In this document: one piece after another, positions 20,914-39,452 of the stretch
How positions within the stretch are numbered: position 1 is the stretch's first letter
Layout of the letters: each line of letters starts with the position of its first letter
Assembly: GCA_965207885.1 (NCBI GenBank)
Contig: OZ242311.1
Coordinates: 3,520,001 to 3,584,000 of the forward strand
Direction: 5' to 3'
Source: Candidatus Latescibacterota bacterium
GTDB taxonomy: Bacteria > Latescibacterota > UBA2968
DNA: 64,000 bases
Notes under the pieces: generated by a model
Database searches by the model: none
The model's input: only the letters and a program-made list of their open reading frames with translations
What the model was told of the DNA's origin: nothing
Program-made: the position numbers and the translations under genes

Positions 20914-22038
20914 TCAAGCCACCTGACGTTGTAGCCCCAACGTCAATATGTTTATCGCAGCATTGTGGTCTCTGTCCGTCTTATAGCCACACGCCTTGCA
21001 ATGATGCACACGATCTGAGAGTGTCTTTTTCTCTCTATGTCCGCATGCCGAGCAATCTTGTGACGTGTATTCAGGATCAACGGCCTTGAATCCAATACCA
21101 GCCTCTTCCGCTTTGTATTCGAGACAGTGCCGAAACAGTGACCACGCTACGTCTGCTATTGATTTAGCCAATCGCTTGTTCTTCTGCATCTCTTTAACGT
21201 CCAATTTCTCTACGGCTATGAAATTGTGACGATTGACCATTTTTCTTGACTCTTGGTGTGCAAAGTTATGTCGCTTATTACGGATGCGCTCATGCACTCT
21301 ACCAATGACTTTACGACGCTTTTCTCTTGTGGGATCGGTCTTGGGTCTTTTTTTCACCGCGTCCCATTTGCGCTGTGCTTTGGCAAGAGCCTTTTCCTCT
21401 TTGCGAAAGAATCTCTGATTCTCTATTTTTTCGCCGTCACTGGTCACAGCAAAGGAATTGAGACCCACGTCAATGCCAACAGCAGAGTTAGTGTTTGGTT
21501 TCTTATCTTTTTCGCCAATATCGCAAGAGATAGACACGAACCATTTGCCTGTTTCTGTGCGTGTGATTGTGCAAGACTTAGGCACACCCTCAAGTGGCCT
21601 GTGCTGGACAATGCGAATGCAACCAATACTGCCCAATCGCAAGCCCTTGCCGTCCAATCGACATCCATTGGAAAACTGAGGGTAGGTGATAGAATCGTAG
21701 CGATTCTCATTCTTGTATCTGGGAAAACCCGCTTTCTCGCCAGTCTTTGACTTCTCTTTGAGACGGCGAAAGAAACCTTTGAATGCCAAATCTACTCTCT
21801 GTGATACTTGTTGCAACACTTGACTATATACTTGCTTGAAAGCAACGTGCTGTTGTTTTAACAATGGTATTGTTTTAGTCTGGTCATATTGCGAGAGAGA
21901 CTTATTCTCATTTTTCCATGCTTGTATTCTCGCACAGAGTAATTGATTATAAAGAATACGACATTCGTCAATATGCGCCAGCAAGATTTGTTCTTGCTTT
22001 TTGGTTGGACGCAATCTATATTTGAACGACTTAAACAT
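20914..22038 (-). CDS. tnpB: RNA-guided endonuclease TnpB
   Basis: KYRLRP HTH, RuvC residues GIDVG / VEKL / DRDxNAA, zinc finger CSAC...CKAC. Confidence 0.95.
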   Translation of the reverse strand: MFKSFKYRLRPTKKQEQILLAHIDECRILYNQLLCARIQAWKNENKSLSQYDQTKTIPLLKQQHVAFKQVYSQVLQQVSQRVDLAFKGFFRRLKEKSKTGEKAGFPRYKNENRYDSITYPQFSNGCRLDGKGLRLGSIGCIRIVQHRPLEGVPKSCTITRTETGKWFVSISCDIGEKDKKPNTNSAVGIDVGLNSFAVTSDGEKIENQRFFRKEEKALAKAQRKWDAVKKRPKTDPTREKRRKVIGRVHERIRNKRHNFAHQESRKMVNRHNFIAVEKLDVKEMQKNKRLAKSIADVAWSLFRHCLEYKAEEAGIGFKAVDPEYTSQDCSACGHREKKTLSDRVHHCKACGYKTDRDHNAAINILTLGLQRQVA

Positions 22039-22044
22039 AATAAA

Positions 22045-22073
22045 AATATACACTTAGGTATTGTTTTTGTCAA
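22045..22073 (-). promoter_or_regulatory. tnpB promoter (probably a leaderless transcript)
   Basis: TTGACA-N17-TATATT, with the ATG (22038) 6 nt downstream. Confidence 0.7.
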
Positions 22074-33083: not shown

Positions 33084-33917
33084 TTAAATGGTTTGAAACC
33101 ACTGCTTATTGACAGTAACTTTTTCAACCAACTCAGTGTTCACACCAAGCTGTAAGTCCTTCAACATCCCAGCAAGTGCATTGCCGTCAATGAGATCCAG
33201 CGGCGGCGCGCCATCGCGCTGTGCTTCAGTCCAAGCATCTCGAGTGAACCTTCCCGTGGTTATCAATAAGCCCTTGTCGGCTCGGCCCACCATAGCCCCT
33301 CTAAAATCTCTAACTGTAGATGCCGTCACCGATCCAACATAGCGTTTACATTGAAATATCACATGAAATGAAAGGAGGTTACCAAGTTTGACCACACCAC
33401 GTCCATCAATACCACCGTCGCCAGCTTTCCCCGTGACCTCAACCTGAATAAAACCAGACTCCCGAAGGATGCGTTGACACAGTCTCTCAAAAGCATCTGG
33501 CGAAATGCTCTGAACAACCTGGATAAGCTCATCCTCCCAACTCAAACTATCCTTATCTTCCTCTTCAAGTTTTGCTTCGTCGCGTTCAGCTCTGGCTTGC
33601 TGGAAAAGTTTCTGCACGAATTGCCTGACTTCTGTAGAGTCAACCGTCTCTGTTTGGTGCCCCTGTGGCGTTAGTGCCCAGACACCACGTGCTGAGTTCT
33701 CGAGTAGACCGTAGTTTTTCAGGTAGTTTCTTGCCCATCCAAGACGGTAATTAAGCGTAGTCAGGTTGCCCTTATGTATGGTGTTTATATCTTCTTCCGA
33801 CAACATGAGAATCTGAGCGACACGATTCGACATCTCTGAGATAGAGCAGGAACCGCCAAGTTCGTGTAGAGCCTGCAATACTGGGTTGAACATCTCGTGG
33901 TAAGGTGGTACTGCCAT
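33084..33917 (-). CDS. mrr: Mrr family (type IV) restriction endonuclease
   Basis: N-terminal winged HTH (WARxYL...RGVW) and DGGIDG...QCKRY catalytic motif. Confidence 0.92.
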   Translation of the reverse strand: MAVPPYHEMFNPVLQALHELGGSCSISEMSNRVAQILMLSEEDINTIHKGNLTTLNYRLGWARNYLKNYGLLENSARGVWALTPQGHQTETVDSTEVRQFVQKLFQQARAERDEAKLEEEDKDSLSWEDELIQVVQSISPDAFERLCQRILRESGFIQVEVTGKAGDGGIDGRGVVKLGNLLSFHVIFQCKRYVGSVTASTVRDFRGAMVGRADKGLLITTGRFTRDAWTEAQRDGAPPLDLIDGNALAGMLKDLQLGVNTELVEKVTVNKQWFQTI

Positions 33918-35153
33918 GGATTCTCCTCTAACTTTCTAGTTTACCTTGCTCTCATGAATACGCTTACCGACCATCGCATAGTTGTCGGCGTAGATCAGAG
34001 ATTTGTTCTAACGTCGATACGATATCGCTGTCTTGCTAGTCCTGTATTTGTGTGAAAATAATCCAGTTTGATATGATGACTTCCCCTCATTTATAACCCT
34101 ATCTATATTACATGAAAAAACGAAATTGGTAGGGTGTCCGCCTCAGGCTTGGCATACGCTTGACTACCCGCGCGAGTACCTTCGCATAACCCAGAGTAAC
34201 TGGCAGCGGATCATACAGTGAATCATTGTTCCAGTTCATCTTTGAAAGCCCTAACACGGCACGTGCCGTGTCATCCCACACCCCATGGCCAGCATGACGC
34301 ACCAACCTCAAGGGACGAGGAGTACTCCTAGAACCTTTAAAATAGGATCTTCTTTCACTGATGTTTATCACGTCACCATGTGTCCACAGAAGAGCATCTC
34401 GGGACCCAAGGTCAACTAGGGTTCCACGCAAAACTGGGTAAGCAGCAGGATCCCCTTTAACACCACCTGTGGACTCATCAATGCGCACACCGCGCCAACC
34501 CACATCTTCAACTACCTGCACGAGATCAATTGCCTCGCATAGGTGAAATGCCTCCATGCAGCCTTTGACTTCATCCGCCTTGAACTCAGTGGTCTTATGC
34601 ACCATAATCCGTCGAGGTGATCGCCCTGCGTGGTGTCGCCGATAGAGGTCGAGAGACCGGGACATTACCCGAAACATCTCAGTGCGTGATAGAAAGGGGT
34701 TGTCACGTTGCACTTCAACTTCATGGGTATTGTAGGCAATAAACTCCAAACCGGAACCCTCGGCATCGAACACCTGACTGCAGCATGTAACAAAGCGTGG
34801 ATTGTCAGATTCCGTTGGACGAACGGCGTATGAAATACCGATATATGCCGTTTCCGAATCCGACTCTGCCAGCTTCCAAGGGACTCCGCCAGCCTTGACA
34901 TAGAGCGCCAAACCAATACGCCACATGACACTGGCTTGGCACGAGTATGTGAGAGCGCTGTCTTCTCTCACCAGCTGAATGGGTAATCCAAGAGCTGCCG
35001 TTGTTGCCTTCAGGTGATCGTGAAGGTCGAAGTCTTCATCGGATGCTCCGGTATAGCCAGGATTCCATCGCTGAGGGATGTAGACGAACAGGACATCGAA
35101 CTTACTTCTGTACGTCTGCAAACGTTGAATAGCTCGGACCAACCGCTCAGCTA

Positions 35154-36090
35154 GGTAGTGTCTGAAAAGTCGTAAAGTATGTATTTTAGTTGCAGCATAC
35201 GCCCTAAACCAAGGAGTATGATATGCAACGGAGATATGAACTGCGCGACGAGGCTTGGCATCTGATCCAAGACCTGTTCCCACCGCCGAAGAAGATGGGT
35301 CGTCCCCGTCGGGATGATCGTACATTATTCAACGGGATCTTCTGGATATTGTGTTCAGGTGCAGCTTGGCGCGACCTGCCAGAACGATATGGTCCTTGGC
35401 AGACAGCCTTTGACCGATTCTGCAAATGGAAACAGGATGGCACCTTTGATCGCATTGTAGAAAAGCTACATCTCAAATTGGGTGAAGATGGTCTTTTAGA
35501 TTATGCGACCTGGATGATGGATGCAACCCATATTCGAGCCACACAAGCCGCGGCAGGAGCGAAAAAAAAAGGGCAAAAAGGGTGAAGAAGAGCCCCCAGA
35601 TCACGCTTTAGGACGCTCTCGTGGCGGTTTGACCACGAAAATCCATCTTCTTTGCGATGCAGTCGGGCATCCTTTAGCAGTGGATCTTCTCCCTGGTAAC
35701 CAGTCAGAATCCACACAGGCTGAAAGGCTACTGTCAAAGGTATGCATACCCACCAAACGAGGGCGTCCAAGAAACCGACCCAAGTATCTGGTAGCTGATA
35801 AATCTTATGATGTCTCACGCATCAGAGTCTATCTACGCAAACGGGGTATCAAGGCTGCTATCCCAAACAAGGCGATTCCCAAAGGCAGAAAACGGCGTAA
35901 GAGAGGACCACGGCCTAAGTGTGATAAAAGATTATATGCCAAACGCAATATCGTGGAGCGTCTCTTTGGTTGGCTTAAACACTGCCGACGGATTGTGACC
36001 CGATTTGAAAAAAAGGCGACTCATTTTCTCACTATGGTCAAGCTGGCCTGTATCAGACAACTCTTCAAAGCTTACTTTTCAGACACTACC
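35154..36090 (+). mobile_element. IS5 family insertion sequence, 937 bp
   Basis: Perfect 17-bp terminal inverted repeats GGTAGTGTCTGAAAAGT, flanked by a TA duplication (35152-53 and 36091-92). Confidence 0.95.
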
Positions 36091-36093
36091 TAA
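35223..36093 (+). CDS. IS5 transposase in two frames joined at an A9 run
   Basis: ORF-A has WRDLPERYGPWQT and MDAT; ORF-B has GRSRGGLTTKIH, ADKSYD and RNIVERLF. A9 run at 35562-35570. Confidence 0.88.
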
Positions 36094-36464
36094 TACAATA
36101 TGAGGACTCGGAGAATTATTAAATTCGGTCTCAAGTTCCTGGTCAAGCTCAACGTGGCAATCACCACCTGCCGCTCTCATATGCACACCAAAGACACGTT
36201 GAAAACCCGGCCATTCAGGGAGATAATCCTTGCGTTCCTTCGGTATGTGCGTCGAATTAAGGCGCGTCATGAAGCTATATAGATGGTTACTTTCCCCGGC
36301 GGGAGCCAAGGTAGCCACTCGAATTGGATCCGGTAATATCCCCGCGGAGTATGGGCCAAACCGCAACAGCCCACGCAATGGATGAATCTCACTATCTGAA
36401 GTACGATCTGGATGGAAGATTAGGCTTGGCTCCGGTAGCCAGATGTGCGGGGCGATCTCGCTGT

Positions 36465-38207
36465 TCATGATCCTATTCTTCTTGAAAATCCTGTAATGGG
36501 AGAAAGGCGATAGACCGCGTCTATACCACCACTAATATCCAGGGCCCGTAGATCGTCTTGAGGTTGGCCCAAGTGACGACTCCAGAACTCAATCAGATCG
36601 TTGAGTTGTCTGTTATAGCGTTTGACACTGCGTTCTCTACCGAAATCCGCTGAAATCATCTTGTTTTCTTGAGTGATACCATCGAACACGGTTCGTGGTT
36701 CTATCAGCAACCACAAGCGATCATTTGCCCAGTCTAGGCGTATACCGATACCCTCGCGCCAGTGGACCTCGGGGCTACCAGCAACTGTTCCAGTAAGCGT
36801 ACCCACTAGTTTCCTCAACTGTGTCCAGGTACTTGACTCTGGGTCGGTGGGTGCCAATAAGTCCACTCTTCCGCGCCGGACAACCTCCAGACCGCGCTGA
36901 CGTGCGATTGCACGGGTTAGTGCATCTCGAAGGATACCTCGCTCGCTTGATTCATACCTTTGGCGTCTTGTGTCGAATGTATGAAGATCGAAGTCTGTAA
37001 TGTCGTAGAGTTCAAAAGCTGTACGTACATCAGCATTGGTACCAAATGCCAATACGCCGACTTGGGAGCGCGCAGCGATCACGTCGACGCCAGCATGCTC
37101 TATCGCCTTGCGCACTTCAGCGGTACCACCAATGTCACAAACGACGCGTCTGCACACGCTCGGCACATCAGTCACTGGCAAAGCGTTGAAACGCACCACT
37201 GGCCAACCACGCTTACCTGTTGGGCGCGGCGCTGCACTCCAGTGTCGGCGTTCCGAAGCAAAAGCGTCGAGCGTTGTAGTGTCGATGTCATCTATTTGGC
37301 GAATCAGATCCCGCAATGCTTCGTCAAAGTTATCAATTGACACTACGCCCACTTCTATCCCCTTCTCATCTGCTTTGGACAACAATTCACAAACGCGCGG
37401 CAACGGCTGACCTTCCCCGTGATGCAACCAAAATAGTCCCGACGGAAAGGATCCTCGGCGTTGAGTTGCTTCATCAAGAGCATCCATAACAGAATCGTCA
37501 CGACCACTATAGCCAACTACTACAAGTCCAAATCTACTACAGGAATCGATGAAAATATTTCTTAGATGTGTATCCTGATGTCGTAGTTCTTCAGTGGTAT
37601 TCTTGAGTCTCCGTGACTGAAAATCACCATGCAGCTTCACTTCCACCGGCCATCGCTCCTCATGAATTGCCTGCTCCCCTAATTCAGGCGCATCGAGGGC
37701 TACACTCGTCAATGAACCAGTTGTGTCATAAATCTTGGCGCAAGCGTCTGCCACCATGGCATCAAAATTCGTTGTCCATACCAGACGTGTACGATTGGCG
37801 CGCATCAGAGTTGCGAGAGCCAAGTGACCGTACGATGGTTTTGCACCTGCTAGCTTTGCATTAATATAGGCACGCCGATCTCCTTCGGATGGATACACCT
37901 CTTCAAATAGTGCGGCATATTCGCCGGGATCCCCAGCACAAGGCAACCGCTTAAAAGAGTCAATGTAGGTCTGTAATTGCACCTGGATAGCCGGATTTGA
38001 GAGATCTGCCACAGATTGGCGCGATACCTTGCGCTGACTGACAAACAATTCCTGTTTGAATTGCCAGATCATGTCCGTCGCGGTAGGAAGACCAGCGGAG
38101 GCCGAGGCACCAGCACCAAGCAACCACATCAGACTGGACGAACGTATAGAGAAGCGTCTTACGAAGTCGTCCGAGTTGATTTGAGGTAGTAATGACTTAG
38201 TATTCAT
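36465..38207 (-). CDS. SIR2-APAZ NADase effector of a short-Argonaute system
   Basis: LLGAGAS, TTNFD, KLHGD and GYSGRD motifs, C-terminal APAZ-like region (RYNRQLN), ATGA overlap with ago. Confidence 0.9.
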   Translation of the reverse strand: MNTKSLLPQINSDDFVRRFSIRSSSLMWLLGAGASASAGLPTATDMIWQFKQELFVSQRKVSRQSVADLSNPAIQVQLQTYIDSFKRLPCAGDPGEYAALFEEVYPSEGDRRAYINAKLAGAKPSYGHLALATLMRANRTRLVWTTNFDAMVADACAKIYDTTGSLTSVALDAPELGEQAIHEERWPVEVKLHGDFQSRRLKNTTEELRHQDTHLRNIFIDSCSRFGLVVVGYSGRDDSVMDALDEATQRRGSFPSGLFWLHHGEGQPLPRVCELLSKADEKGIEVGVVSIDNFDEALRDLIRQIDDIDTTTLDAFASERRHWSAAPRPTGKRGWPVVRFNALPVTDVPSVCRRVVCDIGGTAEVRKAIEHAGVDVIAARSQVGVLAFGTNADVRTAFELYDITDFDLHTFDTRRQRYESSERGILRDALTRAIARQRGLEVVRRGRVDLLAPTDPESSTWTQLRKLVGTLTGTVAGSPEVHWREGIGIRLDWANDRLWLLIEPRTVFDGITQENKMISADFGRERSVKRYNRQLNDLIEFWSRHLGQPQDDLRALDISGGIDAVYRLSPITGFSRRIGS

Positions 38208-38289
38208 TGATTTGTCAAGGCCCTTTTCCCGATGACGTAAAGCGTATATCCCACTCCGTTAATGAGAAATCTCATTGCTCATCACTCCA

Positions 38290-38586
38290 TCAAACCGTCG
38301 GCTGTAGTTCATAGCGCTTGACCATGATCTGGTCTTCTTTTTTACGCGCTTGCACCAAATTATAAGCGGTCTGACGGCGCAGCCAGAACTCAGCATTAGA
38401 CCATCCGGCCTTCTCCAACCGAATAGCCATCTCCGGTGAAATAGCCGCATGACCGTTCAGTACACGTGAAAGCGTATGACGAGCTACACCCAACACCTTC
38501 GCCGCTTCGGCAATATTCAGACCAAGGGGTTCCAGACAGTTCTTTTTGATACTGAGACCCGGATGAGGTGGATTCTTCATAGACAT
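38290..38586 (-). CDS. higA: HigA family antitoxin
   Basis: [18 protein letters not shown] and WLxxQxxY motifs. Confidence 0.9.
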
Positions 38587-38619
38587 AAATATCCCTGATC
38601 GCCCTTCAATGGATATTCA

Positions 38620-38940
38620 CTATTGGTTCAGGCTTTTCTGGATAGTTCCCAGGTCTCGATTGATGTCTTCGAGATCGTATTGGGCTGGTACTTTTCTGTC
38701 ACGCGCATAGTCCATCATCTCCCATAAGGAAACACTAGCATCGCGAGCAGCTCGTGCCAGTGTGAGCTTTCCATCCCCGTATAGACGGGCATAGTGCTCC
38801 AGCTTCCATTGCTGGATTGCTTTTGACAGCAGGCGCCTCACAGTAGTCGAGCGATCAGACTGCTCGACATCCTCGATGAGTTCCAATTCACGTACTAATT
38901 CCAAGGGGAGCCTCGTTCCTACCATACGTTCCTTTTTCAT
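38620..38940 (-). CDS. UPF0175-like (RHH/HTH) antitoxin
   Basis: DRSTTVRRLL and YxxGKLTLARAA; ATGA overlap with the PIN gene. Confidence 0.75.
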   Translation of the reverse strand: MKKERMVGTRLPLELVRELELIEDVEQSDRSTTVRRLLSKAIQQWKLEHYARLYGDGKLTLARAARDASVSLWEMMDYARDRKVPAQYDLEDINRDLGTIQKSLNQ

Positions 38941-39452
38941 AGCTTCGCCTCCCGTGCGAGTCTCAATACTTCCGCTACAACAGTTGGAGATATCCACAAG
39001 ATCTGACTGAGATCTCGAAGCAGGACCTCCAATTCTCCCAAGTTAAGATGCTGTAGCAAGTATGCTTCCAATAATGTACCGGCAGTGCCCAGATATTCTA
39101 CCCCGGCTGCCTCAGCTACACTGCGAGCCTCCTTATCGTCAACGATTAGCCGCAAGTCACGAATACTCGCCAGTGCGATGGACTCAGATTCTCCTTGATC
39201 CAGACGAGAGCGCCTCGTTAGACGTTGCATCAGGTTGCGCTCCTCAGCGGTCAAACGAACCGTTTGTAACCAATCGGCTTCCAAAGCAGCCTCAATCTGC
39301 TCTACACCCAAGGCATGTATAGCTCTGCCAGCATCAATTGTTTCCGCCTTCACGATAGGTCCGATCAGAACCTTATCATAGAGGTCATTCAAGAGCCGCA
39401 AACGCTGAAGCTTGGCGAGGACGATCAATGGGGAAGCGTCGGCTACAATCAC
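38937..39452 (-). CDS. PIN-domain toxin (DUF3368-like)
   Basis: IVADASPLI, LDxGESESIAL, DDKEAR and GTxGxLL motifs. Confidence 0.85.
   Translation of the reverse strand: MIVADASPLIVLAKLQRLRLLNDLYDKVLIGPIVKAETIDAGRAIHALGVEQIEAALEADWLQTVRLTAEERNLMQRLTRRSRLDQGESESIALASIRDLRLIVDDKEARSVAEAAGVEYLGTAGTLLEAYLLQHLNLGELEVLLRDLSQILWISPTVVAEVLRLAREAKL

Follow-up and report, generated by a model that had tools for sequence, protein, structure and literature searches.

The window analysed here, 64,000 nt of the forward strand of a Candidatus Latescibacterota bacterium (GenBank assembly GCA_965207885.1, contig OZ242311.1, positions 3,520,001 to 3,584,000), carries on its minus strand a two-gene operon of the SPARSA type (short prokaryotic Argonaute with SIR2-APAZ), in which a predicted SIR2-APAZ NADase gene is followed by the gene of a short, putatively guide-binding prokaryotic Argonaute (pAgo). 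The pAgo gene is split between codons 126 and 127 by an insertion sequence (IS) of the IS5 family. The features that bear on this interruption are the following, with positions counted from the first letter of the window.

36465 to 38207, minus strand: SIR2-APAZ gene, 580 aa, apparently intact (PADLOC, Pfam and structure alignment)
36091 to 36468, minus strand: N-terminal piece of the pAgo gene, codons 1-126, first part of the MID domain
34108 to 35151, minus strand: C-terminal piece of the pAgo gene, codons 127-473 and the stop codon, rest of the MID domain and PIWI domain
35154 to 36090, plus strand: IS5-family insertion sequence, 937 bp (inverted repeats, TA duplication and profiles)
35154 to 35170, no strand: left terminal inverted repeat, 17 nt, a perfect match to the right one
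36074 to 36090, no strand: right terminal inverted repeat, 17 nt, a perfect match to the left one
35152 to 35153, no strand: left TA of the target-site duplication, a single TA in the related genome G003
36091 to 36092, no strand: right TA of the target-site duplication, which with 36093 forms the TAA stop codon of the transposase frame orfB

The two pieces of the pAgo gene cover a single PADLOC profile (pAgo_I, PDLC02377) back to back, the N-terminal piece matching positions 2-121 (E 2.7e-35) and the C-terminal piece positions 124-457 of 457 (E 1.2e-158), and are parts of one gene. In-silico removal of 939 bp, i.e., the IS and one TA, yields a minus-strand frame of 1422 nt and 473 codons, in which the sole stop is the terminal codon and whose product fits the short MID and PIWI architecture of about 470 aa. 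An earlier reading made from the letters alone (hereafter the sequence-only reading) had predicted this junction and a restored 473-aa open reading frame (ORF) free of any other stop or frameshift, and both were recovered; neither half of the gene carries a second lesion. As presently encoded, the N-terminal ORF (36079-36468, 129 aa) runs three codons into the IS and stops at 36079-36081, and the C-terminal piece has no start codon of its own. An in-frame ATG within the IS (35325) opens a 405-aa ORF (34108-35325), which is probably not expressed; a scan by consensus alone of the minus strand between 34900 and 36700 found no sigma-70-like site that could act as an outward promoter for it.

The ancestral state of the gene is preserved in another genome of the same genus (G003), in which the operon is about 93% identical at the nucleotide level, lacks the IS and has its flanks meeting at a single TA. 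Hence, the TA is a true target duplication and not part of the element, and the removal of 939 bp restores the ancestral frame. The pAgo gene of G003 is an intact ORF of 473 aa, 93.2% identical to the rejoined frame without a single gap. The ratio of non-synonymous to synonymous divergence (dN/dS) between the two genes is 0.124 at a dS of 0.25 (0.17 for the N-terminal part and 0.11 for the C-terminal part), which indicates purifying selection on pAgo for nearly all of the divergence between these genomes.

The closest characterized counterpart is GsSir2/Ago, the SPARSA system of Geobacter sulfurreducens (PDB 8IN8, 8JKZ, 8JL0, 8K87 and others), which has the same operon order and whose pAgo has the same 473 aa as the one obtained here after removal of the IS. 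The C-terminal piece aligns to residues 126-473 of GsAgo (E 1.9e-97) and the N-terminal piece to residues 6-97 (E 2.5e-15). In the part of PMC10781750 that describes its domains, the MID domain of GsAgo spans residues 1-218 and the PIWI domain residues 219-473. Because the break falls at the equivalent of GsAgo residues 125/126, it is the MID domain that is split. The equivalents of H166, K170 and Q181, which belong to the 5′-phosphate pocket of the MID domain, are kept in the C-terminal piece according to the alignment to GsAgo; the pocket lysine is printed as "K70" in the cited passage and was taken as K170, since residue 70 of the chain is a glutamate. The roles of these pocket residues and of the NADase residues discussed below are those given in passages of PMC10781750, PMC11452484 and bioRxiv 10.1101/2021.12.14.472599. 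In contrast to GsSir2/Ago, the interruption of the pAgo gene means that a functional heterodimer is not expected here.

The partner gene matches the PADLOC profile Aga_SIR2-PNTD1-PNTD2 (PDLC02419) over positions 1-556 of 558 (E 4.5e-187) and the Pfam family SIR2_2, and residues 11-546 of its product align to residues 5-547 of GsSir2 (PDB 8in8_B/8jl0_A) with an E value of 1.5e-71. The motifs TTNFD, HGDF and GYSGRD, in which the equivalents of N142, H186 and D230 of GsSir2 lie, are all kept. The two genes are co-oriented with SIR2-APAZ upstream, and the stop codon of SIR2-APAZ overlaps the start codon of pAgo at 36468 (ATGA), an overlap that is found in 126 of 139 related loci. The identification of the disrupted gene as the Argonaute of a SIR2-APAZ system, broken by an IS5-family element, which was already part of the sequence-only reading, is thus borne out by PADLOC, by the structure alignments and by the transposase profile NF033580.

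The interrupting element is 937 bp long and has perfect inverted repeats of 17 nt (19 nt with the flanking TA included). Its transposase is encoded in two frames:

35223 to 35585, plus strand: transposase orfA, 120 aa (DNA-binding part, Pfam DUF4096, E 2.7e-28)
35521 to 36093, plus strand: transposase orfB frame, +1 relative to orfA (Pfam DDE_Tnp_1, E 5.1e-17)
35562 to 35570, plus strand: run of nine A residues (A9) followed by GGG within the orfA/orfB overlap, the likely site of the frame change

The NCBIfam model NF033580 (IS5 family transposase) is matched by both frames with 127.9 and 158.8 bits against a cut-off of 110, orfA covering profile positions 2-114 and orfB positions 102-256. The orfB frame has no stop within the IS and ends at the TAA of 36091-36093, which is composed of the duplicated TA together with the flank base that follows it, as the sequence-only reading had proposed. 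The full transposase would be made by slippage at A9, either because the transcript drops one A or through a +1 shift. The IS unitigs of four sequencing runs (drawn from no more than three samples and two studies) show no differences and no gaps relative to the window, and the A9 run is also present in a 95%-identical copy of the IS in the congener G008 (L027); together, these observations indicate that the number of A residues is not a homopolymer miscall. The element resembles the IS427 group in its size of about 0.9 kb, its ends beginning with GG, its 2-bp duplication and its two-frame DUF4096 and DDE_Tnp_1 transposase. It differs from the group in that the position of orfB, +1 behind A9, suggests transcriptional slippage or a +1 shift instead of the usual -1 ribosomal shift, and in that its stop codon lies outside the element. 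The IS427/IS1031 borders are themselves described as fuzzy in PMC2516522.

Counting the copies of the IS, which the sequence-only reading had suggested, gave 23 in the genome, a single contig of 6.23 Mb, all of them 100% identical over 937 bp. Every copy is flanked by TA on both sides, which with the single TA of G003 upholds the duplication claimed from the sequence, and every copy lies in a YTAR context (CTA at 19 and TTA at 4 left ends, TAA at 18 and TAG at 5 right ends); only 25,468 of the 243,431 TA sites of the genome are of this kind. Hence, the orfB stop is always supplied by the target, as TAA in 18 copies and as TAG in 5. The unitig depth of the IS is 1358 against 63-65 for the flanks in run X1 and 2943 against 109-122 in run X4, a ratio of about 22-27 fold that agrees with 23 copies. 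Of 20 congeneric genomes, 16 lack the IS, one contains a 36-nt piece of it, two contain a single copy and one contains 3, the full copies all being 95% identical; some of these assemblies are fragmented metagenome-assembled genomes (MAGs) that could lack repeats. The presence of 23 identical copies at 23 different YTAR sites suggests, if indirectly, that the element has been active in transposition. The identity of all copies, the lack of a second lesion in pAgo and the dN/dS of 0.12 relative to G003 likewise support a recent insertion, as the sequence-only reading had argued from the unspoilt halves of the gene. With no differences in 23 x 937 nt and a dS of 0.25, the burst may date from about the last thousandth of the period elapsed since the split from G003, an estimate that could be blurred by gene conversion among the copies.

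The IS has hit many other genes. In-silico excision at the 23 sites gives an ORF of at least 250 aa at 13 of them (pAgo included), an ORF of 100-151 aa at 4 and none of at least 80 aa at 6. According to Pfam, the interrupted genes encode a sigma-70 factor, a type I HsdM methylase, a sigma-54 activator, PhyH and DUF4838 proteins, a RecQ-type helicase, NHL-repeat proteins, a chondroitinase-B-like protein and a TonB-dependent receptor. In the DUF4838 gene, profile coverage is contiguous across the IS break. The same is true of the hsdM gene (L017, G000:C1:1731294-1735230, G000 being the genome studied here), where N6_Mtase is covered at positions 6-38 and 42-305, contiguous as in pAgo, which makes hsdM a second defence gene broken by the burst. 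The PADLOC hits DpdF (for RecQ-type helicases), MzaA (for sigma-70) and RtcR (for the sigma-54 activator) were regarded as generic domain matches and were not counted as defence. Since the IS also broke many genes without a role in defence, pAgo appears as one of many dispensable genes that were hit.

Outside this genome, the pAgo gene is seldom damaged. It is contiguous and in frame in 149 of the 154 related loci that hold both parts, five further loci cut by contig ends having been excluded. Four of the exceptions have frame breaks that may be sequencing errors. The fifth, L058:2426-4001 on a gammaproteobacterial MAG chromosome (OZ241870.1), contains an insert of about 1.4 kb, the ends of which were located only roughly, with a 428-aa DDE_Tnp_1 transposase, and represents an independent case in nature of such a knock-out. 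In addition, another MAG chromosome (OY729432.1, L087) has a 5′-truncated pAgo remnant that lacks the first ~157 codons and any SIR2-APAZ gene and adjoins a gene for an AAA_21 (AbiEii-like) ATPase. Within the genus, G003 keeps the ancestral pAgo allele, and its SIR2-APAZ gene carries a CAA-to-TAG change that leaves 547 of 580 aa and removes the last 33 residues (L025:1975-2075, corresponding to about 36468-36566 of the window). Because SIR2-APAZ extends at least to residue 570 in 138 of 139 relatives from many phyla, this truncation is atypical, and it is probably harmful. Proteins of the pAgo kind that are 70-79% identical to the one described here are encoded in MAGs labelled Poribacteria, Bryobacterales, Dehalococcoidia, Nitrospirota, Binatia, Planctomycetota and many Proteobacteria, a range that indicates that the operon moves widely between phyla.

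We consider it probable that the knock-out of the SPARSA pAgo is a tolerated casualty of a recent IS burst and not a regulated or reversible switch. In the proposed course of events, the IS5-family element would have inserted at a YTAR site within the MID region of pAgo and duplicated the central TA. This would have happened during a very recent burst that gave rise to 23 identical copies and struck many dispensable genes, the Argonaute among them. The SPARSA system would then be dead, with its SIR2-APAZ gene intact but orphaned, and the insertion would be a knock-out that is tolerated and in effect permanent, a stage towards loss of the gene. For GsSir2/Ago, the sections of bioRxiv 10.1101/2021.12.14.472599 that address the matter report that both proteins are required for defence and that neither can be expressed individually. 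As this studied homologue is an obligatory heterodimer that needs both of its proteins, we infer that SPARSA function has been lost here; for the same reason, the loss of pAgo would be expected to switch the system off without unleashing the NADase. The insertion itself is probably neutral.

Identical copies in a number such as 23 are the kind of repeat that misleads assemblers, and a copy of the IS could have been misplaced into an intact gene, an artefact that the sequence-only reading had itself named as a possible refutation. Assembly-independent unitigs nevertheless bridge both junctions in X1 (33500-35179 and 36068-38296) with no differences and at the depth of the flanks, and the same right-junction unitig is present in X4, the listed left-side contig of which stops at 34992; X1 and X4 probably derive from the source sample and are thus independent of the assembler and not of the sample. 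The depth ratio, which fits 23 copies, and the TA duplication at a YTAR site, which is the trace of a real insertion, also speak against misplacement, and an assembly artefact is hardly credible. A reversible or phase-variable switch, in which precise exit of the IS restores the Argonaute in a population with on and off alleles, was suggested in the sequence-only reading and draws on the perfect ORF that a 939-bp excision would give. No trace of such a population was found: no joint skipping the IS is present over 33500-38500 in the unitigs of X1, X4, X5 and X6, where contigs drop rare variants and where X5 and X6, sponge metagenomes with a depth of about 2, do not cover the junctions. The X1 unitigs are unbranched through the junctions at about 63-fold, and those loose unitig ends that were checked by eye match the flanks of other IS copies. 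Likewise, a search of metagenome contigs with the C-terminal piece yielded no empty allele of the same species among 209 relatives (best identity 79%), and the genome contig collection, from which near relatives may be absent, contained no contig of the same species, its best pAgo match also being at 79%. The direct repeat is moreover only 2 bp long. A DDE element between direct repeats this short should very rarely be lost precisely, and excision by cut-and-paste usually ends in a break or a footprint instead of an exact join. We therefore regard a switch of this kind as very unlikely.

A different question is whether the loss of the system was favoured by selection. The sequence-only reading held that the insertion silences a costly system, and a version of this idea would have SPARSA be costly or self-harming through NAD+ depletion, the IS in G000 and the nonsense codon in G003 then being convergent adaptive inactivations. 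Several observations lean towards it or against the view of pAgo as a chance casualty. SPARSA is carried by two of the 21 genomes of the genus and both carriers are damaged, in different genes, whereas 149 of 154 pAgo loci and 138 of 139 SIR2-APAZ loci are intact elsewhere; with a damage rate of a few per cent in the background, this is a hint, from two related genomes, that the loss was directional and not purely accidental. The two lesions seem to be of recent date, with dN/dS at 0.12-0.20 and, past the G003 stop, a tail in which the counting method gives 7.0 synonymous against 4.0 non-synonymous changes. Of the 13 hits in large ORFs, 2 fall in defence genes (pAgo and hsdM), perhaps more than chance would give. 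Induction of GsSir2/Ago was moreover reported, in a part of bioRxiv 10.1101/2021.12.14.472599, to cut NAD+ about 30-fold even without a plasmid and to slow growth. On the other hand, the two genomes are kin, the G003 truncation may not inactivate the protein or may be a MAG error, and relaxed selection predicts the same pattern, so that damage in both carriers could reflect either counter-selection of SPARSA or a relaxation of selection in these symbionts. Nothing in the data shows selection, and with the same IS breaking ORFs of at least 250 aa at 13 of 23 sites, housekeeping-type and other non-defence genes included, no special selection needs to be invoked. Selected loss is thus unlikely. 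A stronger form, in which the Argonaute was no bystander, SPARSA being selected against in the genus through two independent recent lesions and pAgo perhaps lost first, which would have licensed the burst of a highly transcribed multicopy IS otherwise sensed as an invader, seems more doubtful still; that SPARSA senses this IS at all is pure speculation.

The inactivation of defence genes by insertion sequences is an ordinary process that has already been documented. The parts of Sheng et al. 2023 (PMC10359306) concerned with it describe IS1 and IS10 insertions that inactivate cas genes and 12 other defence clusters. These cases are similar to the present one in that a DDE insertion sequence disables a defence gene, with natural examples obtained by genome screening. 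They differ from it in that the element here is of the IS5 family, with a TA duplication and a YTAR target, and in that the target is SPARSA; the examples named in section 14 of that paper are restriction-modification and Dnd systems, and pAgo goes unmentioned in that section. In the literature on pAgo or SPARSA and insertion sequences, we found no report of a SPARSA Argonaute split by an IS, which is not proof that none exists. The case described here leaves current understanding unchanged, and its value lies in being a clean natural example of the loss of an abortive-infection system, in which the lesion is fresh and reconstructible and the effector gene is intact. Together with the sister species represented by G003, it provides a natural pair of off and on alleles of the sensor gene for testing the cost of SPARSA, and the same pair is convenient for testing whether SIR2-APAZ on its own does nothing. 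A further point on record is an IS5-type element for which the stop codon of the transposase comes, in every copy, from the YTAR target.

The SPARSA operon lies in a small defence islet flanked by ordinary metabolic genes. Outside the operon, the islet includes a helix-turn-helix gene, a UPF0175 gene, a PDC-S70 candidate (38290-39452) and the following gene:

33084 to 33917, minus strand: Mrr-type (type IV) restriction endonuclease (Pfam Mrr_cat and Mrr_N; PADLOC mREase_IV)

The short matches of 34026-34080 and 38255-38300 in congeners raised the possibility of a cassette array, which was rejected: both stretches are single-copy in the genome, position 38255 marks the resumption of synteny with G017 and G004, and the 55-nt match, a weak one, falls within an unrelated syntenic block. 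The stretch is also contained in sponge metagenomes. Further away in the window, a TnpB/IS605 OrfB-type gene (20917-22053, minus strand), with OrfB_IS605 and Cas12f1-like TNB domains, is flanked by glycosyltransferase and radical-SAM genes.

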